Source: a virus (Duplodnaviria; Heunggongvirae; Uroviricota; Caudoviricetes). Taken from it: DNA of 32,869 nt. A program made the position numbers and the translations under genes. The notes below the pieces were generated by a model. It was not told the DNA's origin, made no database searches, and worked only from the letters and a program-made list of their open reading frames with translations. Position 1 is the stretch's first letter. The number at the start of each line of letters is the position of its first letter. The stretch is from the IMG/VR virus record IMGVR_UViG_3300011584_000016, positions 1 through 32,869 of that record; one strand, given 5' to 3'. Shown piece by piece: positions 9,352-29,627 of the stretch.

Positions 9352-10674
9352 ATGTACGCTGAGTTAAATGAATTTATAAATGCTCTAGATAAATTAAAAG
9401 ATTATTTTGATGAGTCTGAAAAATCATATGGGCATAAAAATAAATGGCTTATAGAAGCATTTGGCATCGGTCATCCTGTAATGTTGCCAAAAGACTTTTC
9501 TGACTATATTGAAAGAATGATCGAGAAGTCAAAAAAATTAGAGATGCTTAAATTAACTGATTTCGAACTAGATGAACTCGACTATGTAAGAAAAGTCGTA
9601 ACAAAGGTACATTCTGACCTTGCTCCTAGCTTTTATAATGGAAATGGTGTACAAGCGATTCCTTCATTTTTAATGACCATGACATATATATCTTCATTTT
9701 TAGATTCTTTGATTTCCTTCGACCGACTCCAGGATACGGATGCCGTACCTCAGAAATTAGCACGTAAAATACGGAGTATGGATGCAAGAGTAAGACAAGC
9801 TACTCCAGAAATTGAAACACTGGAAGGTAAAATTAAATTGATTAACGATGCATATGCCGCAGCTGATAATCTACCGGTATATATGGAAGAGTTAAATAAA
9901 TACAAGGCAGAATTAACGGAAATAAAAGAGTACATTTTAAAGGCAAAAGAAGAAGCATCTCATTCGAATGTCTTAATGGATGTTTGTCTAAACGAAGGGG
10001 AAAAGATAAAAGAAGAGTTAAATGCAAAAAAAGAGATCGCAGAAAATTATCTTTCGAAATGTGAGGAAGCTATTCGTGCTTCGACTTCAAAAGGGTTAGC
10101 GGGAGCTTTTGAGATCAAAGCGAATAAGTTAAACTGTAGCATTCGTTTATGGGTAGCAGGATTATCTGCGGCATTAATTGCCGGTGGGTTTGTTGGTTAT
10201 GAAAGGTTAAAAGCATTATCCAATGTTTTAGCGCAACCAGATACCAGTGCAATAGTGATTGCAACGCAATTAATACTATCCATATTTAGTATCGGCGCGC
10301 CGCTTTGGTTTGCGTGGTTGTCTACAAAGCAAATTAATCAAAGATTTAAGCTAGCAGAAGATTATGCCTTTAAGTCTGCCGTTGCAAAAGCATATGAGGG
10401 TTACAGAAAAGAAGCATCGCAACTTGATGATGGAACATTCGCTACTCGGTTGTTTGATTCTGCTTTAACCCGTCTAGAGGAAGCCCCATTAAGATTTGTC
10501 CAAGGTGATGATCACTCAACACCATGGATGGAAATGTTAAACTCTAAAGCTTTTTCTAAATTTCTTGATTCTTCGATTGATAATGTAAACTATGTTAAAA
10601 ATATCCTTGATCGTAAGGCTAAACCCTCTGTAGTTGCAGATAAGCCACAGCAGATGGAAAAGGGGACTGAATAA
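9352..10674 (+). CDS. AT-rich cargo gene: 440-aa coiled-coil protein with two predicted TM helices, unknown function
   Basis: GC content visibly lower than flanking phage genes; GAGG RBS; hydrophobic segments IRLWVAGLSAALIAGGFVGY and AIVIATQLILSIFSIGAPLWFAWL; no nucleotide-binding or nuclease motif seen. Confidence 0.7.
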   Translation: MYAELNEFINALDKLKDYFDESEKSYGHKNKWLIEAFGIGHPVMLPKDFSDYIERMIEKSKKLEMLKLTDFELDELDYVRKVVTKVHSDLAPSFYNGNGVQAIPSFLMTMTYISSFLDSLISFDRLQDTDAVPQKLARKIRSMDARVRQATPEIETLEGKIKLINDAYAAADNLPVYMEELNKYKAELTEIKEYILKAKEEASHSNVLMDVCLNEGEKIKEELNAKKEIAENYLSKCEEAIRASTSKGLAGAFEIKANKLNCSIRLWVAGLSAALIAGGFVGYERLKALSNVLAQPDTSAIVIATQLILSIFSIGAPLWFAWLSTKQINQRFKLAEDYAFKSAVAKAYEGYRKEASQLDDGTFATRLFDSALTRLEEAPLRFVQGDDHSTPWMEMLNSKAFSKFLDSSIDNVNYVKNILDRKAKPSVVADKPQQMEKGTE

Positions 10675-23354: not shown

Positions 23355-23686
23355 CGGACAAAATATATATTGATTTGCGAATTATCGACGGTGATTTTTT
23401 ATTAAATACAGGACGTGAGCCGACGTTATGCGATAACCGCGTCAGTATTGGACAGGATATCAAACACGCAATTATTGAGAGTAATTACGCAACGCAGTTA
23501 ATCGGCCAGCGATCCGCTGTGTTGCGCAATGACGTCTATCTGAAAATTATTTTAATGATTGAAACGGATATTCGCCTGATCCCTGGAACCGTACGTGTAT
23601 ACGAAGAGGGCGCAGGGCGTTTTATTGTCACTGCTGAAACGTATGAATTTGGGCTAATTGATCCGATCGAGGTGGTTTATGAGTGA
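23351..23686 (+). CDS. Putative baseplate protein (gpW/gp25-like size and position)
   Basis: 111-aa ORF overlapping the tape-measure stop and preceding the J-like gene. Confidence 0.45.
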   Translation: MTDKIYIDLRIIDGDFLLNTGREPTLCDNRVSIGQDIKHAIIESNYATQLIGQRSAVLRNDVYLKIILMIETDIRLIPGTVRVYEEGAGRFIVTAETYEFGLIDPIEVVYE

Positions 23687-24863
23687 CGCGCCGAAACCAG
23701 ATTACCGCGCGCTATTGAATGACGCAGGTTTGCCGGGGACTGAAAAAGAGATTCAGGCGAAATTCCAGACCATTGCTGACGACGAAGGCCTGATCACAAA
23801 CACATCAACAATGTCACCATTCTGGCGACTGATCAAAGCGATCGTCACGCGCCCGGTGTTGTGGCTGCGCGATGTGCTGGCCGACGTTGTGCTAACTAAC
23901 TTGTTTGTTGCAACAGCGGGCGGAACCTGGCTGGATTTGCTGGCGTGGGCTGTTCGTCTGGAGCGCAAAGAAGCGACGCCAGCGCACGGCGCGGTAACGT
24001 TTATTAAAAACAGCGCGGCGGATACCGTCACGATCCCTGCCGGAACGATTGTTCAGACTGAACGTGTTAACGGCGAGGTTTATCGCCTGATTGTTGACAA
24101 AACAACGATTATTCCGGCTGGTATTGAGCGGTTATCGCTCGCGTGTACCGCTGAAACAGCGGGCAGCGCGTGGAATCTCGCCCCGGGTTATTACCACGTT
24201 TTACCGGTCGCCGTCGCGGGCGTTATTGAGGTCACAACAAATGACGACTGGCTGACAATGCCGGGCGCGGATCGTGAATCTGATGATGAATTCCGCCCAC
24301 GGATACGCAATCAATTTAACGTTGTGGGCAATTACCACATTGACGCCGTTTACCGGTCCGCCGTCGCCAGCGTGGCGGGGCTGAGTACCGACCGCATATT
24401 TTTCTTACATGACGCCCCGCGCGGCCCAGGTACGGCCAACGCTTATTTATTACTTGATGCGGGCGTCGTTAGCGATCCGTTTATCACCGCAGTGAATAAC
24501 TACGTAATGGGGCAGGGAAACCACGGACACGGCGACGATATGCAGTGTTTCCCGATGCCGGAGACATTTCACGATCTGATTGTCACGTTACACGCACCGG
24601 ATAACGCGATGCTGACTGACGCGGAACGCGCTGATCTGCCCGCAGCCGTTGAAAACATAATTCGCTGTGCGTTCCGTGAAAACTCCGCATATCAGGTAAC
24701 GAAAACGTGGCCCTGGTCGCGGTTTGGGTTTTCAAAACTGGGGGAGGAAATTCACGAACTATTTCCAGCGCTGTCGTCTGTTGAATTTTCGCTGGGCGAT
24801 ATCGTCAGTGAATTGAGTATTCCGCGTTTACGTTCGCTATCAGTGAAGTGGGGCGGCGCATGA
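23679..24863 (+). CDS. Baseplate J-like protein
   Basis: About 395 aa from ATG 23679 (GAGGTG RBS), in the expected position before the I-like and fibre genes. Confidence 0.7.
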   Translation: MSDAPKPDYRALLNDAGLPGTEKEIQAKFQTIADDEGLITNTSTMSPFWRLIKAIVTRPVLWLRDVLADVVLTNLFVATAGGTWLDLLAWAVRLERKEATPAHGAVTFIKNSAADTVTIPAGTIVQTERVNGEVYRLIVDKTTIIPAGIERLSLACTAETAGSAWNLAPGYYHVLPVAVAGVIEVTTNDDWLTMPGADRESDDEFRPRIRNQFNVVGNYHIDAVYRSAVASVAGLSTDRIFFLHDAPRGPGTANAYLLLDAGVVSDPFITAVNNYVMGQGNHGHGDDMQCFPMPETFHDLIVTLHAPDNAMLTDAERADLPAAVENIIRCAFRENSAYQVTKTWPWSRFGFSKLGEEIHELFPALSSVEFSLGDIVSELSIPRLRSLSVKWGGA

Positions 24864-25390
24864 ACATTAAATTGCCATGCTGGATGAATCGCGGTGAACC
24901 GCAAAAATTGGCCGCGGTGTGTAAAAAATTTTGGTTGTGGCTTGATAGCTGGCTGCGCTGGCCGCTGCAACAATTCGACGCGCTGAACTGTAACGAAACG
25001 ATCCTGTATTTGCTGGCGTGGCAGCGTGATGTAACGCGCCTGACTGGCGAACCGCTGGAACTGTTCCGCCGTCGCGTAAATTTTGCGTTTATCAACGCGC
25101 AGGACGCAGGCAGCACTGCCGGTTTTCTGCGGATATTTGAGCGGCTGGGGATCGGGTTTGTTGGTATTAACGAGCGTGTAGAGGGTATCGACTGGGACGT
25201 AATTTTATTAGATCTGACAGATAAACAGATATCTGAAAACGGCGATCTGTTGCGTGAAATAGTCAGGCAATACGGATGTACGTGTCGCCGTTACAGATTT
25301 CAGTCTGTTACGTCAACGCCGATCAATTTACGGGCAGGCAGTGTTCAAAATGATTACGTGTGTAACACCGCGTCATTAATCAGGGAATAA
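24860..25390 (+). CDS. Tail protein I-like (baseplate)
   Basis: About 176 aa from ATG 24860 (ATGA overlap with J stop), directly before the fibre gene. Confidence 0.55.
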   Translation: MNIKLPCWMNRGEPQKLAAVCKKFWLWLDSWLRWPLQQFDALNCNETILYLLAWQRDVTRLTGEPLELFRRRVNFAFINAQDAGSTAGFLRIFERLGIGFVGINERVEGIDWDVILLDLTDKQISENGDLLREIVRQYGCTCRRYRFQSVTSTPINLRAGSVQNDYVCNTASLIRE

Positions 25391-25392
25391 AA

Positions 25393-27693
25393 ATGGCAAC
25401 AATAATTACTCGCGCGTTTGAGCGATGGCAAGCCGCTGATCTGGTCACGCCGGGCGAAATTCAACTGGATGAATTCATTCTGGCTAATGTGCCGGGGCTG
25501 GATGCTGACGCAGCGATTGACCGCGACGCCGGGTTGCCCGACACCGCGCATATCGTTTATCGCGAACCGGTTAACGCCGCCGGTGTTGTCAATAAAAACA
25601 CCGTTGCGTATTCGTTTACCATCGGGACAAACATTGGTGATTTTGCGTTTAACTGGATCGGCCTGATTTGCAAAAAAACCGGGCTGTTAGCGATGGTGAC
25701 GACGATCCCGACGCTGCAAAAAGTTAAGACAACAGCGACGGAACAAGGCAATGCATTTACTCGCTCGTTTTTGATTGAATTTACTGGCGCGTCTGAAAAA
25801 ACAGGGATTACTACGCCCGCGGAAACCTGGCAGATCGATTTTACCGCACGGCTGATAGGGATTGACGAGTACCAGCGGTTACTAAATATCGATCACTACG
25901 GCAGCGCCCTGTTTTTTGACGACGGTTGGCTGATTCAGCGCGACGGCGCGAAATACCGTTGCGTCGCAGGTCTGGGATACGTTGCAGGGCTGAGGCTGGC
26001 ACACGAAGCAACGGAGGAAATTACCGTTGCGAGTAAACCGGCGGCGGTCTGGCTGGATACGGTCTGGCAGGGTTCTGTGATGGCACCGTGCATTCCGGTT
26101 ACTGAAATTTGCGTAACAACTGCTGGCGATCTCGCGGAATACACCGACGAGGCGGGCAAAAAACATTACGTTTTCAAAATTGCAGAAATCGCGGCAGACG
26201 GTACGGTAACGGACCTGCGCCCTGTTCGTAGCAGTGACGATCTGGATAAACGTTATTTGCGGCGGTCGCAAAATCTCGCAGACCTGGACGACAAAGGCAA
26301 GTCTCGCGTAAATCTGGGCCTGGGCGGCGCGGCGGTGCGCAACGTAGGGCAACTGGCGGGGCAGGTTGCCGCAGCTGACGATCCGCGAATTGTTCACGCC
26401 GTGCAGGATACGCGACAAATCAACAGTAAGTCGCTGACGGGCGATATTTCGCTGACGTATTCAGACGTTGGCGCAGTACCGACGTCGCGCAAAGTGAATA
26501 ATAAGGTACTGACGGGCGATATTACGCTGACGTATTCAGACGTTGGCGCAGTACCGACGTCGCGCAAGGTGAATAACAAGGCGCTAACGGGCGATATTAC
26601 GCTGACGTATACAGACGTCGGCGCAGTGCCAGCGGGGCGAAAAGTCAACGGACGCGCGCTGTCAGCAGATATCAACGTAACGGCGCAGGATATTTTTAAT
26701 GGCCAGGCGGTCGGATTAGGTGCAAATCAAAATCTGAACAGCTATACAACGCCTGGTATTTATTATCAACCGGCTAATGCCAACACATCTGCGGCGCTGA
26801 ATTACCCCGAAAATAACGCCGGGGCATTGATTGTTTATCGTGATGCGGGAATTCAGCAAGAATACCGCGTTTACAACTCATCACGACGCTGGACACGCGC
26901 GCAGTACGCCGACGGGGCGTGGACGCCCTGGGCGCGGGAATATAACACCCAAAATAAACCTACGTATTCAGATGTTGGCGCAGTACCGACGTCGCGCAAA
27001 GTGAATAATAAGGCGCTGACGGGTGATATTACGCTGACATATTCAGACGTTGGCGCAGCTGCTGCAAGCCATAAACACCCCTGGTCAGATATTACCGGGG
27101 TGCCGGATTTTATTACGGTAGCAAATGCCGACGCGCGTTATTTCGGTAATTTCGCGATGTTTACTGCAAACGGTACGTTTACTGTTCCGGCTGGGGTTAA
27201 AAAAGTAATGGTGGAAATGATCGGAGGTGGCGCAGGCGGCTGCGCCGCTCCGTCGTCCACGAATTACTATAAACCAGCGCCCGGCGGGCGCGCTGCGCAA
27301 GTTGCCAGCGCGATAGTTACCGTTTCTCCGGGCACCGCTATTTCTGTTTCTGTGGGGGCAGGTGGTGCCGGTGCGATCCCTGCGGCGGGCACGGCGCTGA
27401 TTGCGGGTGGTGAGGGTGGCTCTTCTAGTTTTGGAGGTGTTTCAGCCGCAGGCGGTAAAGGATTACTGAATAGCGGCGTTTGGGATCCAGCCGAATTTAA
27501 CGGCCTTAAGTCAACAGTGTGGGTTGGCGGCGACGGTGAAAACAGTCCGTTTGGATCTGGCGGAAAAGGGGTTACGTCAAGTTTCAGCCATGCAACAGGA
27601 TATGGCGCGGGTGGTTCCGGCGGCAGCTGTAACGGAGTGAGTAAAAGCAATGGGGGCAACGGTTCCCCTGGTTTTGTCAGAATTTGGTGGTAA
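25393..27693 (+). CDS. Tail fibre protein with internal tandem repeats and glycine-rich C-terminal domain
   Basis: 766 aa; repeats LTGDITLTYSDVGAVPTSRKVNNK; C-terminal GGGAGG...GGSGGS... glycine-rich region ending FVRIWW. Confidence 0.8.
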   Translation: MATIITRAFERWQAADLVTPGEIQLDEFILANVPGLDADAAIDRDAGLPDTAHIVYREPVNAAGVVNKNTVAYSFTIGTNIGDFAFNWIGLICKKTGLLAMVTTIPTLQKVKTTATEQGNAFTRSFLIEFTGASEKTGITTPAETWQIDFTARLIGIDEYQRLLNIDHYGSALFFDDGWLIQRDGAKYRCVAGLGYVAGLRLAHEATEEITVASKPAAVWLDTVWQGSVMAPCIPVTEICVTTAGDLAEYTDEAGKKHYVFKIAEIAADGTVTDLRPVRSSDDLDKRYLRRSQNLADLDDKGKSRVNLGLGGAAVRNVGQLAGQVAAADDPRIVHAVQDTRQINSKSLTGDISLTYSDVGAVPTSRKVNNKVLTGDITLTYSDVGAVPTSRKVNNKALTGDITLTYTDVGAVPAGRKVNGRALSADINVTAQDIFNGQAVGLGANQNLNSYTTPGIYYQPANANTSAALNYPENNAGALIVYRDAGIQQEYRVYNSSRRWTRAQYADGAWTPWAREYNTQNKPTYSDVGAVPTSRKVNNKALTGDITLTYSDVGAAAASHKHPWSDITGVPDFITVANADARYFGNFAMFTANGTFTVPAGVKKVMVEMIGGGAGGCAAPSSTNYYKPAPGGRAAQVASAIVTVSPGTAISVSVGAGGAGAIPAAGTALIAGGEGGSSSFGGVSAAGGKGLLNSGVWDPAEFNGLKSTVWVGGDGENSPFGSGGKGVTSSFSHATGYGAGGSGGSCNGVSKSNGGNGSPGFVRIWW
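26440..26673 (+). repeat. Three tandem copies of a 78-nt coding repeat in the tail fibre gene; a fourth diverged copy at about 26957-27060
   Basis: Near-identical nucleotide units ctgacgggcgatatt.cgctgacgtattcagacgttggcgcagtaccgacgtcgcgcaa.gtgaata.taag repeated head-to-tail. Confidence 0.8.
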
Positions 27694-27697
27694 CTCA

Positions 27698-28300
27698 ATG
27701 AAATACGCTTATTACAATCCTGTTGATTTTAAAGTTTTACAGTGGCTGGATACCGATCAATTCAATATCGTTTTACCCGAATCAATTATGCCCGTCACTG
27801 ACACGCAGTGGCGCTACCGTGATCGCGATTGTTGGGTAAATCCAGCGGCGGGGAAATTAGTAACAACACCGCCGCCGGGTGAATTTTATCGCCTGAGCGG
27901 GGATAAGTGGGTTTACGACTCTGGCGCATTCGCTACCGCGCTGGAACACTCAAAAACAGCAGTTAATCAGGCAATCAAACTACACCGCGACGCGCTGACA
28001 GCTGATTACGTTGAAATTGACGGTCATCATTTCCACAGTGACGCAAACAGCCGCATTCAACAAATGACGCTGGCAAGAATGGGGGCCGCTGGCGCGGTTC
28101 CGCAGGGCCTAATGTGGCAAACAAAAAATCACGGATTGATCGAACTGACAAACGAGATCGCCGCGCAATTTGAAACGGTCACTATCGCGCACGACATGCG
28201 CCTGTTTGCAACCGCTCAGGCACACATTAACGCCGTGGCCATGCTGGAAACTATTGAGGACGTAAATAAATACGACTGGTCGCAGGGGTGGCAGCTATGA
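27698..28300 (+). CDS. Putative tail fibre assembly protein
   Basis: About 200 aa from ATG 27698, directly after the fibre gene. Confidence 0.5.
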   Translation: MKYAYYNPVDFKVLQWLDTDQFNIVLPESIMPVTDTQWRYRDRDCWVNPAAGKLVTTPPPGEFYRLSGDKWVYDSGAFATALEHSKTAVNQAIKLHRDALTADYVEIDGHHFHSDANSRIQQMTLARMGAAGAVPQGLMWQTKNHGLIELTNEIAAQFETVTIAHDMRLFATAQAHINAVAMLETIEDVNKYDWSQGWQL

Positions 28301-28782
28301 GCGTGTTTATTGCGTTTTACCGGGGCAACAGCTCGCGGCGCGGTCTGACGCGTTTTAAAGACTGGGCGATAAGAATGATCACGCGCAGTATTTATTCTCA
28401 TTGTGAGATTGCCACCGGGCCGAGTGATTACGAAACGCATACGCAATTTGTATGCAGATCGTCGTCATGGCGTGATGGCGGGGTCAGGGAAAAAAGAATG
28501 GCGTTGCCGATCGACAAATGGGACCTGGTCGAAATTAACGCGACGCCCCATGAAGTCGCTGTATTTTTTGAAAAGCTCAAAGGCAAAAAATACGATCTCG
28601 CCGGTGTTTTCGGCTTTTTGTTGTTCTGCCGTGGCAATGTTGATCGCTGGTTTTGTAGTGAGTTTTGCGCGGAGTTTTTGGAGTTGCGCGACGCATGGCG
28701 ATATTCGCCGGGGCAGTTATACGCACTGGTTACCAGTGAACGGGAGCGGGGGTACACATGGCGTGGAGTAACGGACAACTAA
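28297..28782 (+). CDS. Hypothetical protein, possibly permuted papain-fold Cys peptidase-like
   Basis: ATGA overlap with upstream gene; SHCEIA and WFCSEFC motifs; fold call very tentative. Confidence 0.35.
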   Translation: MSVFIAFYRGNSSRRGLTRFKDWAIRMITRSIYSHCEIATGPSDYETHTQFVCRSSSWRDGGVREKRMALPIDKWDLVEINATPHEVAVFFEKLKGKKYDLAGVFGFLLFCRGNVDRWFCSEFCAEFLELRDAWRYSPGQLYALVTSERERGYTWRGVTDN

Positions 28783-29627
28783 AACAGCCGGACGTCGTCA
28801 AAACACCGCACGACACGTTAAAAGTTTCGCTGGCCTCGCTGTCATCGCCCGGTATTGCTGCGCTACGTGCGTTAGAGTCGCGCGCGCAATGGCCGCAACC
28901 GGATTTAGCCAGCCAGGCGGATCAAGTAACAGACCTGCGCGCGGAACTGGATAAATTGACGACGTCGGGGCAACAAATTGCAGTCCACAACTGGACGTTT
29001 GGCGCAGGCAAAGAGGAAGAAAGCGGAACCTATTTAAGCCCGCCTAATGCCGTTAAACGCCTGGCTGAAAAACTACGCGACGGCGCAGATCTGCGCGCTG
29101 GCGCGGGCGGTGAGGCAGTTTGTTTAATGGTTTGCGCGGGGCAAATAGGGGATTTTGTCAGCAAGCTGGAGAAGGTCTGCGAAGTATTGCCCGCGCCCGG
29201 ATTCACGCAGGCGCTGAACACTGCGCGCGCATATTCAGGTAACGAAGCGCAGAAAATGCAAAAGCCTGGCGCGCTAACGTATCCGGCCTGGCCGGAGCCG
29301 GGCGATCTGGTCGAAAAAAATCACCGCGAATCACGGCGCTTGTTGTTGGCTGAAATGGCAATGCTGGCAGCGCATAAAACACGCGCACCGGTTGACGTAT
29401 TGGCGGAATTGGTTCGACTGCGTAAAAAGGCGGTTGATGATCTGGCAAAAGAATTTGATGAGATGACCGCGTTAAATGCGTCTGTCTGGTCATGGCAGGG
29501 TAGCGGCGGCGGTAAATCACTGGCTGCGGCGCTTGAAGCCAGCGGACCGCCCGATCACTCGTTTATTTTTACTGTCGCCGTTCTGTTTGTCGGCGCTGAT
29601 CTGTCGTTTTTGAAGGACTGCATATGA
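28758..29627 (+). CDS. Hypothetical tail-region protein
   Basis: 289-aa ORF with phage-like GC, overlapping neighbours on both sides. Confidence 0.4.
   Translation: MAWSNGQLKQPDVVKTPHDTLKVSLASLSSPGIAALRALESRAQWPQPDLASQADQVTDLRAELDKLTTSGQQIAVHNWTFGAGKEEESGTYLSPPNAVKRLAEKLRDGADLRAGAGGEAVCLMVCAGQIGDFVSKLEKVCEVLPAPGFTQALNTARAYSGNEAQKMQKPGALTYPAWPEPGDLVEKNHRESRRLLLAEMAMLAAHKTRAPVDVLAELVRLRKKAVDDLAKEFDEMTALNASVWSWQGSGGGKSLAAALEASGPPDHSFIFTVAVLFVGADLSFLKDCI

Follow-up and report, generated by a model that had tools for sequence, protein, structure and literature searches.

The question raised by this locus is whether a tail fibre whose gene carries in-frame tandem repeats changes by recombination between those repeats, and what the glycine-rich domain at its C-terminus is for. 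The locus lies in a 32,869-nucleotide (nt) stretch of viral DNA (IMG/VR record IMGVR_UViG_3300011584_000016, positions 1 to 32,869), which we refer to as the window. An earlier note, made from the sequence without database searches, had drawn attention to positions 26440-27693. These do fall inside one open reading frame (ORF), but they cover only the 3′ 55% of it; the complete tail-fibre gene spans 25393..27693 on the plus strand, as do all fibre features given below, and encodes 766 amino acids (aa). We think it likely that the product of this ORF is the only tail fibre of a temperate P2/HP1-like phage resident as a prophage in E. coli, and that the fibre is a chain of modules. The wider explanation, which also takes in repeat-based recombination, a receptor-binding tip and a DUF4376 chaperone, is one that we hold with good confidence.

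The proposal that the product is a tail fibre was borne out by domain matches and by gene position. The Pfam family Phage_tail_fib (PF12571) matched aa 2-157 at 95.2 bits against a cutoff of 23 (E = 4.9e-27), which identifies this part (25396..25863) as an N-terminal anchor of the P2 gpH / HP1 orf31 type; a second Pfam family, Gly_rich_2, matched toward the C-terminus, and many PHROG tail-fibre families matched the ORF product. Upstream of the fibre gene lie a Baseplate_J gene (23658-24863) and then a P2 gpI-like gene (Tail_P2_I / PHROG 1228; 24848-25390), and the order J, I, fibre, DUF4376 gene is kept in nine related loci. The window as a whole is a complete P2-like prophage, with an integrase at 1-993, a gpA-type replication protein, a portal, a terminase and a P2-family capsid. 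An identical 766-aa protein is found in an E. coli annotation (P0001), and eight contigs carry it. Cultured phages share recognisably only the N-terminal 276-340 residues, the nearest being HP1-type fibres: by tblastn, approximately aa 1-276/340 are 43-50% identical to the fibres of HP1, HP2, ESSI-2, phiO18P and vB_YenM_324. No record in the phage collection covered at least 80% of the 766-aa fibre by tblastn, and megablast of the fibre and chaperone DNA against that collection returned no match.

The repeats lie in the middle of this protein and are much stronger than chance would produce. The earlier note had put their period at 78 nt; Tandem Repeats Finder instead reported a period of 75 nt, both at 26434-26627 (2.6 copies, 93% matches, score 332) and at 26443-26672 (3.1 copies, 82% matches), and a repeat finder detected four 97-nt copies (family D1) at spacings of 75, 75 and 432 nt. 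The unit is therefore 25 codons long, not 26. In codon register (26416/26419-26640/26643; aa 342-416), three full tandem units, QINSKSLTGDISLTYSDVGAVPTSR, KVNNKVLTGDITLTYSDVGAVPTSR and KVNNKALTGDITLTYTDVGAVPAGR, occupy 26416..26640 and follow the 25-residue consensus KVNNKALTGDITLTYSDVGAVPTSR. Three tandem units had indeed been described, but to call them near-identical was generous, as their pairwise nucleotide identities are 66/75, 62/75 and 59/75. A degenerate fourth unit, KVNGRALSADINVTAQDIF, follows at 26641..26715; it corresponds in alignment to residues 1-18 of a unit, is identical to the full units at 30-33 of 75 nt, and opens into a knob domain, and the junction VNGxxLxxDxxVTxxDIF ahead of the knob also occurs in relatives. 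A distal copy of 1.3 units, TYSDVGAVPTSRKVNNKALTGDITLTYSDVGA, is found at 26962..27058, starting 432 nt after the start of the third copy, and so the previously described copy after a gap of approximately 300 nt is real. The description of this copy as diverged did not hold, since it is identical to copy B (26455-26551) at 92 of 97 nt (95%), with an exact run of 40 nt, and is thus closer to copy B than the tandem copies are to each other.

Sequences of this kind are widespread. An HMMER scan with aa 335-425 found 2116 cluster representatives at E ≤ 0.001, 103 of them at E ≤ 1e-30, and some of these proteins hold approximately 20 matched stretches (P0270, P0277 and P0282 are examples with the motif). 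The core motif VPxxRxVNGxxLxxDIxLTxxDVxA (window 26395-26667) recurs in them with other elements interspersed, and no Pfam model covers it. A Pfam search of the repeat region gave no match at E ≤ 10, including to Phage_fiber_2 (PF03406), and NCBIfam likewise gave no family. The sole match in a PDB sequence search with the repeat was marginal (9f4b, Gp12 short tail fibre, E = 0.33), and a literature search on tandem-repeat or fibre-length variation returned loosely related work only, on tailocin fibre length haplotypes. Upstream of the array, at 26242-26340 (aa 284-316), the protein also holds a single copy of another fibre motif, YLRRSQNLADLDDKGKSRVNLGLGGAA, which matches, at E = 1.2e-5, a motif that occurs five times over in PDB 9zd7 (‘short tail fiber gp92’).

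We found that the copy number of the 25-residue unit is polymorphic. Among the 41 closest proteins, which we compared for unit count, it ranged from 0 to 7, always in the 25-aa phase, and the knob was present in part of the close relatives and absent from the rest. In a set of alleles whose 341-aa N part and 212-aa C part each show 0-1 substitutions, the array is made up of 3, 5, 6 or 7 units, and the 5-unit alleles have two different internal arrangements. The earlier suggestion that the repeats allow expansion and contraction is thereby supported, as copy number is not invariant even between near-isogenic alleles. These differences could be read instead as assembly artefacts or as ancient fixed differences, with the repeats acting only as a structural element of the shaft and no ongoing recombination. 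Short-read assemblers can collapse arrays of 75-nt units that are 94-96% identical, draft contigs are the source of the alleles with 5 and 7 units, and the window’s exact allele is invariant over its eight contigs, all of which fit such a reading. We nevertheless consider it unlikely. The 3-unit allele (P0019) occurs on 24 contigs, the largest of 4.8 Mb, the 6-unit alleles (P0006 and P0008) occur on 59 and 108 contigs, the largest of 5.2-5.3 Mb, and the complete genomes L001 and L003 have 6 units each; assembly collapse therefore cannot explain all of the variation. Because the flanks differ by 0-1 amino acids, ancient divergence is ruled out; the existence of two distinct arrangements with 5 units implies that they arose separately; and mosaic breakpoints, described below, fall repeatedly inside the array. 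In the variable arrays, units are 94-96% identical, and identity between the repeat flavours TGDITLTYSDVGAVPTSR and SADITLTYSDVNAVPTTR is only 62-72%, indicating homogenisation within each flavour.

The repeats also bracket a domain. By phmmer, aa 442-521 (26716..26955) matched the knob of R-type pyocin fibres in the PDB, weakly but specifically (6cl5_A, tail fiber protein, E = 1.7e-4; 6ct8_A, R2-type pyocin, E = 1.6e-3). Past this knob the protein chain returns to the repeat at ...TYSDVGAVPTSR, and the knob is therefore nested within one unit. One more unit follows, then AAAASHKH, which contains an HxH motif (H560-K-H562; 27070..27078) at the shaft/tip junction, and then the C-terminal domain. 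The pattern H.H.W is found in nearly all relatives with a Gly-rich tip; the HxH motif presumably binds metal, which we take from its likeness to T4 gp37-type fibres. Simulated recombination between the third copy and the distal copy (26530-26626 × 26962-27058) removed 432 nt and left an in-frame, knob-less fibre of 622 aa with three repeat units, which is the length and layout of natural alleles in a related lineage. The corresponding event between copy B and the distal copy removed 507 nt and gave an in-frame product of 597 aa. Exact runs between the repeat copies measure 26-40 nt, which equals or exceeds the shortest length usually quoted for RecA-dependent recombination in E. coli.

Comparison with related loci revealed mosaic boundaries, and their breakpoints fall in the repeats. 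N1420 (L002) is approximately 90% identical to the window as far as 27056, where the distal repeat ends, and again, at 87%, from 27652 onward, the tip having been exchanged. L007 loses homology at 26630 and regains it at 26979; its middle is exchanged, and its C part shows a single residue of difference. Across L007, L010 and L011, the point at which homology picks up again is 26962-26979. L008 shows a break at 27240-27651. Homology to L012 stops within the array, at 26573, and is regained at codon 96 of the chaperone gene (27983). Since the tip and the N-domain of the chaperone are switched together in L012 and the left edge of the switch lies in the repeats, these two parts can move as one cassette. 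The tip domain is thus exchanged as a cassette, with or without the chaperone N-domain.

Exchanges of this kind might also arise from programmed variation rather than general recombination, either through an invertible segment or shufflon, as in the Mu G and P1 C systems, or through a diversity-generating retroelement acting on the fibre gene. A 19-nt inverted repeat with one mismatch does have one arm in the tip domain (27308-27326) and the other in the chaperone gene (28172-28190), and 0.01 matches to it would be expected by chance. Its left arm is confined to near-identical alleles, however; in L001 and L003, whose tip is of the same type, it has five mismatches. Both arms also lie in ORFs of one strand, and the sole ORF on the minus strand (27267-27698) falls short of spanning the segment; an inversion would thus disrupt both genes. 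Among the ORFs scanned, which were part of the total, neither an invertase nor a reverse transcriptase was found. We rejected the 19-nt repeat as an inversion site because its left arm is not conserved, and it is probably a coincidence; programmed variation as a whole appears extremely improbable here.

The second part of the question concerns the C-terminal domain (27151..27690), which we assign as a TNF-like and glycine-rich domain of the polyglycine-II type and as the putative receptor-binding tip. Gly_rich_2 (PF21722) matched the whole protein at 44.9 bits and the domain alone at 50.3 bits (cutoff 24.3), covering profile positions 2-98/226 only. The last 170 residues contain 25% Gly and 51% Gly+Ala+Ser, compared with 8.3% Gly in the first 555 residues; the domain is Gly-rich as described earlier, although ‘extremely’ overstated it. 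A profile of the tip domain aligned with 38 homologues (profile A1) matched Pam3 gp24 (7ypx_A) at E = 5.7e-22 across the whole domain (profile 69-260, chain 76-283), the Pam3 fibre (7yfw_a) at E = 6e-21 and Bxb1 gp33 (9d93) at E = 4e-5. The AlphaFold2 (AF2) model of the tip as a monomer had a predicted local distance difference test score (pLDDT) of 83.6, with beta-strands at both ends, and the FVRIWW in which, as previously noted, the protein ends forms the last strand. Long confident stretches of the model have no DSSP helix or strand, and the predicted structure appears to combine a beta-sandwich with interleaved, extended glycine-rich segments. A Foldseek search of the PDB ranked 7ypx_A first (E = 8.8e-7, template modelling (TM) score 0.59), then Bxb1 tail-tip chains (9d93), then approximately 20 entries for ALK/LTK TG domains.

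The published record on this type of domain concerns recognition of the host. Receptor recognition by Pam3 gp24 was proposed to lie with its TNF-like and Gly-rich domains (PMC9608196); in a fibre from a Klebsiella phage, the Gly-rich domain is where host-adaptation mutations were located (PMC12671077); and Gly-rich domains of this kind have been described as polyproline-II/polyglycine-II bundles related to S16 gp38 (PMC13243192). By analogy with these proteins, the tip most likely binds the host receptor. The earlier note had left the choice between a receptor-binding module and an intramolecular chaperone, and only the former kept its support, through the match to a proposed receptor binder. 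An intramolecular chaperone of the endosialidase or T5 pb1 type would help the fibre to trimerise and would then be cleaved, with no part in receptor binding. The domain does sit at the extreme C-terminus, the usual place of such modules, and DUF4376-type chaperones are structurally similar to intramolecular chaperone domains in other phages (PMC10579305), making chaperone-like functions at fibre tips plausible. No Peptidase_S74-type Pfam family was found, however, either in the whole protein at E ≤ 0.01 or in the C-terminal 212 aa at E ≤ 10, and none appeared among the fold matches. The homologous Pam3 gp24 tip stays part of the fibre in solved structures (PMC9608196, PMC9942802), and a separate chaperone-type gene directly follows the fibre gene. 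We therefore regard an intramolecular chaperone as very unlikely and a receptor-binding tip as the better account. In other searches, tblastn of the tip domain alone against the phage collection gave no match, probably owing to low-complexity masking, and no paper in our literature search mentioned PF21722. Antisense to the Gly-rich coding sequence, on the minus strand, is a Pro-rich ORF of 143 aa (27267-27698), which is most likely a by-product of GGN codons and not a gene.

The gene that follows the fibre (27698..28300, plus strand) encodes a DUF4376 protein of 200 aa and is a probable tail-fibre assembly chaperone gene. PF14301 (DUF4376) matched its C-terminus at 39.1 bits (cutoff 25, E = 1.1e-9). 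The mechanically called ORF starts at 27650; the ATG at 27698, 4 nt past the fibre stop codon, is the likelier start, and at the corresponding place in related loci gene callers predict a product of 200 aa. Homologues of the protein bear Caudo_TAP_N and Caudo_TAP domains, and in L012, where the fibre has a Collar-type tip, the downstream protein combines a Caudo_TAP_N N-domain with the same DUF4376 C-domain; between that protein and the window’s, the N-domains are 24-31% identical and the C-domains 72-79%. The model of the window’s protein was confident (pLDDT 93.8) and gave no meaningful match in the PDB, with no fold likeness to the solved fibre chaperones Pam3 gp25 and TfaMu, and its N-domain had no Pfam or PDB match. 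In experiments, both Alteromonas phage V22 and a Campylobacter prophage depended on DUF4376 proteins for their fibres to be active (PMC7289586, PMC7882524, PMC10579305). Because of its family membership, its gene position and its co-swapping with the tip, the DUF4376 protein is most likely an intermolecular fibre chaperone.

Taken together, the modules suggest how such a fibre might be built. The gpH-type N-terminal domain would anchor the presumably trimeric fibre to the baseplate; the shaft would end in the array of 25-residue units, with a pyocin-type knob nested in one of them; and one further unit and the HxH motif would lead into the tip. The tip itself would be a TNF-like beta-sandwich interleaved with extended glycine-rich segments, in the fold of the Pam3 gp24 tip and the ALK/LTK ligand-binding region, and the DUF4376 chaperone would have an N-domain matched to that tip and a conserved C-domain that drives multimerisation. 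At the DNA level, the 75-nt units may serve as portable, in-frame homology. Unequal or slipped recombination between units would change their number in 25-aa steps, and units on both sides of the knob would permit its gain or loss in frame. The last unit would then form the left boundary of tip-cassette exchange, and on the right the exchange would stop at one of two places, the fibre gene’s conserved 3′ end or a domain boundary inside the chaperone gene.

Several observations weigh against this explanation. The TM-score of the tip to Pam3 is moderate, and the 25-aa unit lacks a Pfam family and has only a marginal match in the PDB. Some of the copy-number variants come from draft assemblies, in which tandem repeats can collapse. 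The window’s own array, with 76-88% identity between units (mean 82%), is less homogeneous than the number-variable arrays, and the identical protein is found on eight contigs; instability of the window’s own allele is therefore only conjectural. Loci with Gly-rich tips keep the chaperone N-domain 64-98% identical while their tips drop to approximately 50%, so that fine-scale co-variation of the two is weak.

The number of units, or the knob, may alter the reach of the fibre or the host range of the phage. A broader conjecture, which we regard as doubtful, is that the 25-residue unit is a widespread, unannotated fibre ‘connector’, acting both as a length ruler, rapidly tuned by recombination to the depth of the host surface layers, and as a universal splice site at which knobs and tip domains could be added or swapped in frame. 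If it were true, unit number and knob presence would be adaptive determinants of host range and not neutral polymorphism.

Each of these modules is of a known kind. Cyanophage Pam3 gp24, with its chaperone gp25 (PDB 7YFW, 7YPX; PMC9608196), provides the best fold match, its TNF-like and Gly-rich tip being homologous to that of the window, and in both a two-domain chaperone gene follows the fibre, with the N-domain as the non-conserved, tip-binding part. Unlike the window’s fibre, gp24 is a minimal fibre of 280 aa with an alpha-helical anchor, and it has no gpH-type N-domain, 25-aa repeats or knob; a fold match between the DUF4376 model and gp25 was undetectable. P2 gpH and HP1 orf31 of the Peduoviridae have in common with the window the PF12571 anchor and the gene order J, I, fibre, chaperone. 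Their distal half differs from the repeats, knob and Gly-rich tip seen here, and their chaperone is of the gpG/Caudo_TAP type, whereas the window encodes a DUF4376-type chaperone that has an N-domain of its own. In 1992, Haggard-Ljungquist et al. reportedly described mosaic exchange of the distal fibre part and the chaperone in P2-like phages.

The tip and knob can be placed in the same way. The ALK/LTK TG region, S16 gp38 and the ‘wing brush’ of Bxb1 gp33 recognise a ligand or receptor through folds of the polyglycine-II or glycine-rich lattice type, the window’s tip is predicted to have such a fold, and the relatedness of the ALK/LTK, S16 gp38 and Bxb1 domains has been noted before (PMC9608196, PMC13243192). 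Sequence identity of ALK/LTK and Bxb1 to the window’s tip is only 12-23%, however, with low TM-scores (0.23-0.51), and gp38 of Salmonella phage S16 is a separate monomeric adhesin rather than a fused tip and was absent among Foldseek matches at E ≤ 0.001. The knobs of R-type pyocins (6CL5, 6CT8) align over approximately 80 residues, with the motifs ‘NYP..AG.L.VYR’ and ‘W.PW’ conserved; pyocins have two knobs before a foot domain, whereas the window’s fibre has a single knob within the repeat array, upstream of another tip domain. The known DUF4376 chaperones (V22 gp27, A5 gp9, the partner of the Campylobacter CJIE1 H-fibre and the TfaMu C-terminus) resemble that of the window in their C-terminal domain, in the position of their gene just after the fibre, and in a variable N-domain that switches with the type of fibre tip (PMC7289586, PMC10579305, PMC7882524). 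They differ in that the window’s N-domain matches no Pfam or PDB entry and its chaperone role is predicted.

Other features of the window and its relatives were also noted. The CRISPR type I-E array of E. coli NY1601 (L013 1168-1562), located between queE and ygcE, has a spacer against the fibre gene: its 32 nt are identical to the 3′ end of the gene at 27648-27679, with AAG, the canonical I-E protospacer-adjacent motif, at 27645-27647. A second perfect CRISPR-annotated match, of 34 nt, is to the shaft-coding part at 26131-26164 and comes from E. coli OkiPb01713. Between the chaperone gene and the HP1_ORF34 baseplate gene lie ORFs at 28288-28782 (164 aa, PHROG 1128) and 28758-29627 (289 aa, PHROG 1677), which are present in all related loci and are not swapped along with the fibre tip. 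Between replication gene A and the portal gene, a position that often holds variable cargo in P2-like phages, is an ORF of 440 aa (9352-10674). It had no Pfam or NCBIfam match, and PADLOC gave marginal matches only, both for this ORF (LmuB and a type I methyltransferase, E ~ 8e-4) and for the adjoining unassigned ORFs.

The locus is therefore a clear example of a known way in which phages vary the fibre with which they recognise a host, and not a new kind of system; no new mechanism is revealed, and it is the combination of modules and the allelic series that are new examples of that kind. The range of bacteria open to attack by a phage or tailocin is set by its fibre tips. The natural series found here, in which one anchor and one tip are combined with 3, 5, 6 or 7 units, with or without the knob, and which includes at least four Gly-rich tip subtypes and a Collar-type tip, shows where in-frame junctions are tolerated, which is of direct use in fitting new tips to P2-type phages or R-type tailocins. 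The analysis also extends the ALK-like, receptor-binding polyglycine-II fold to common prophages of E. coli and Salmonella.

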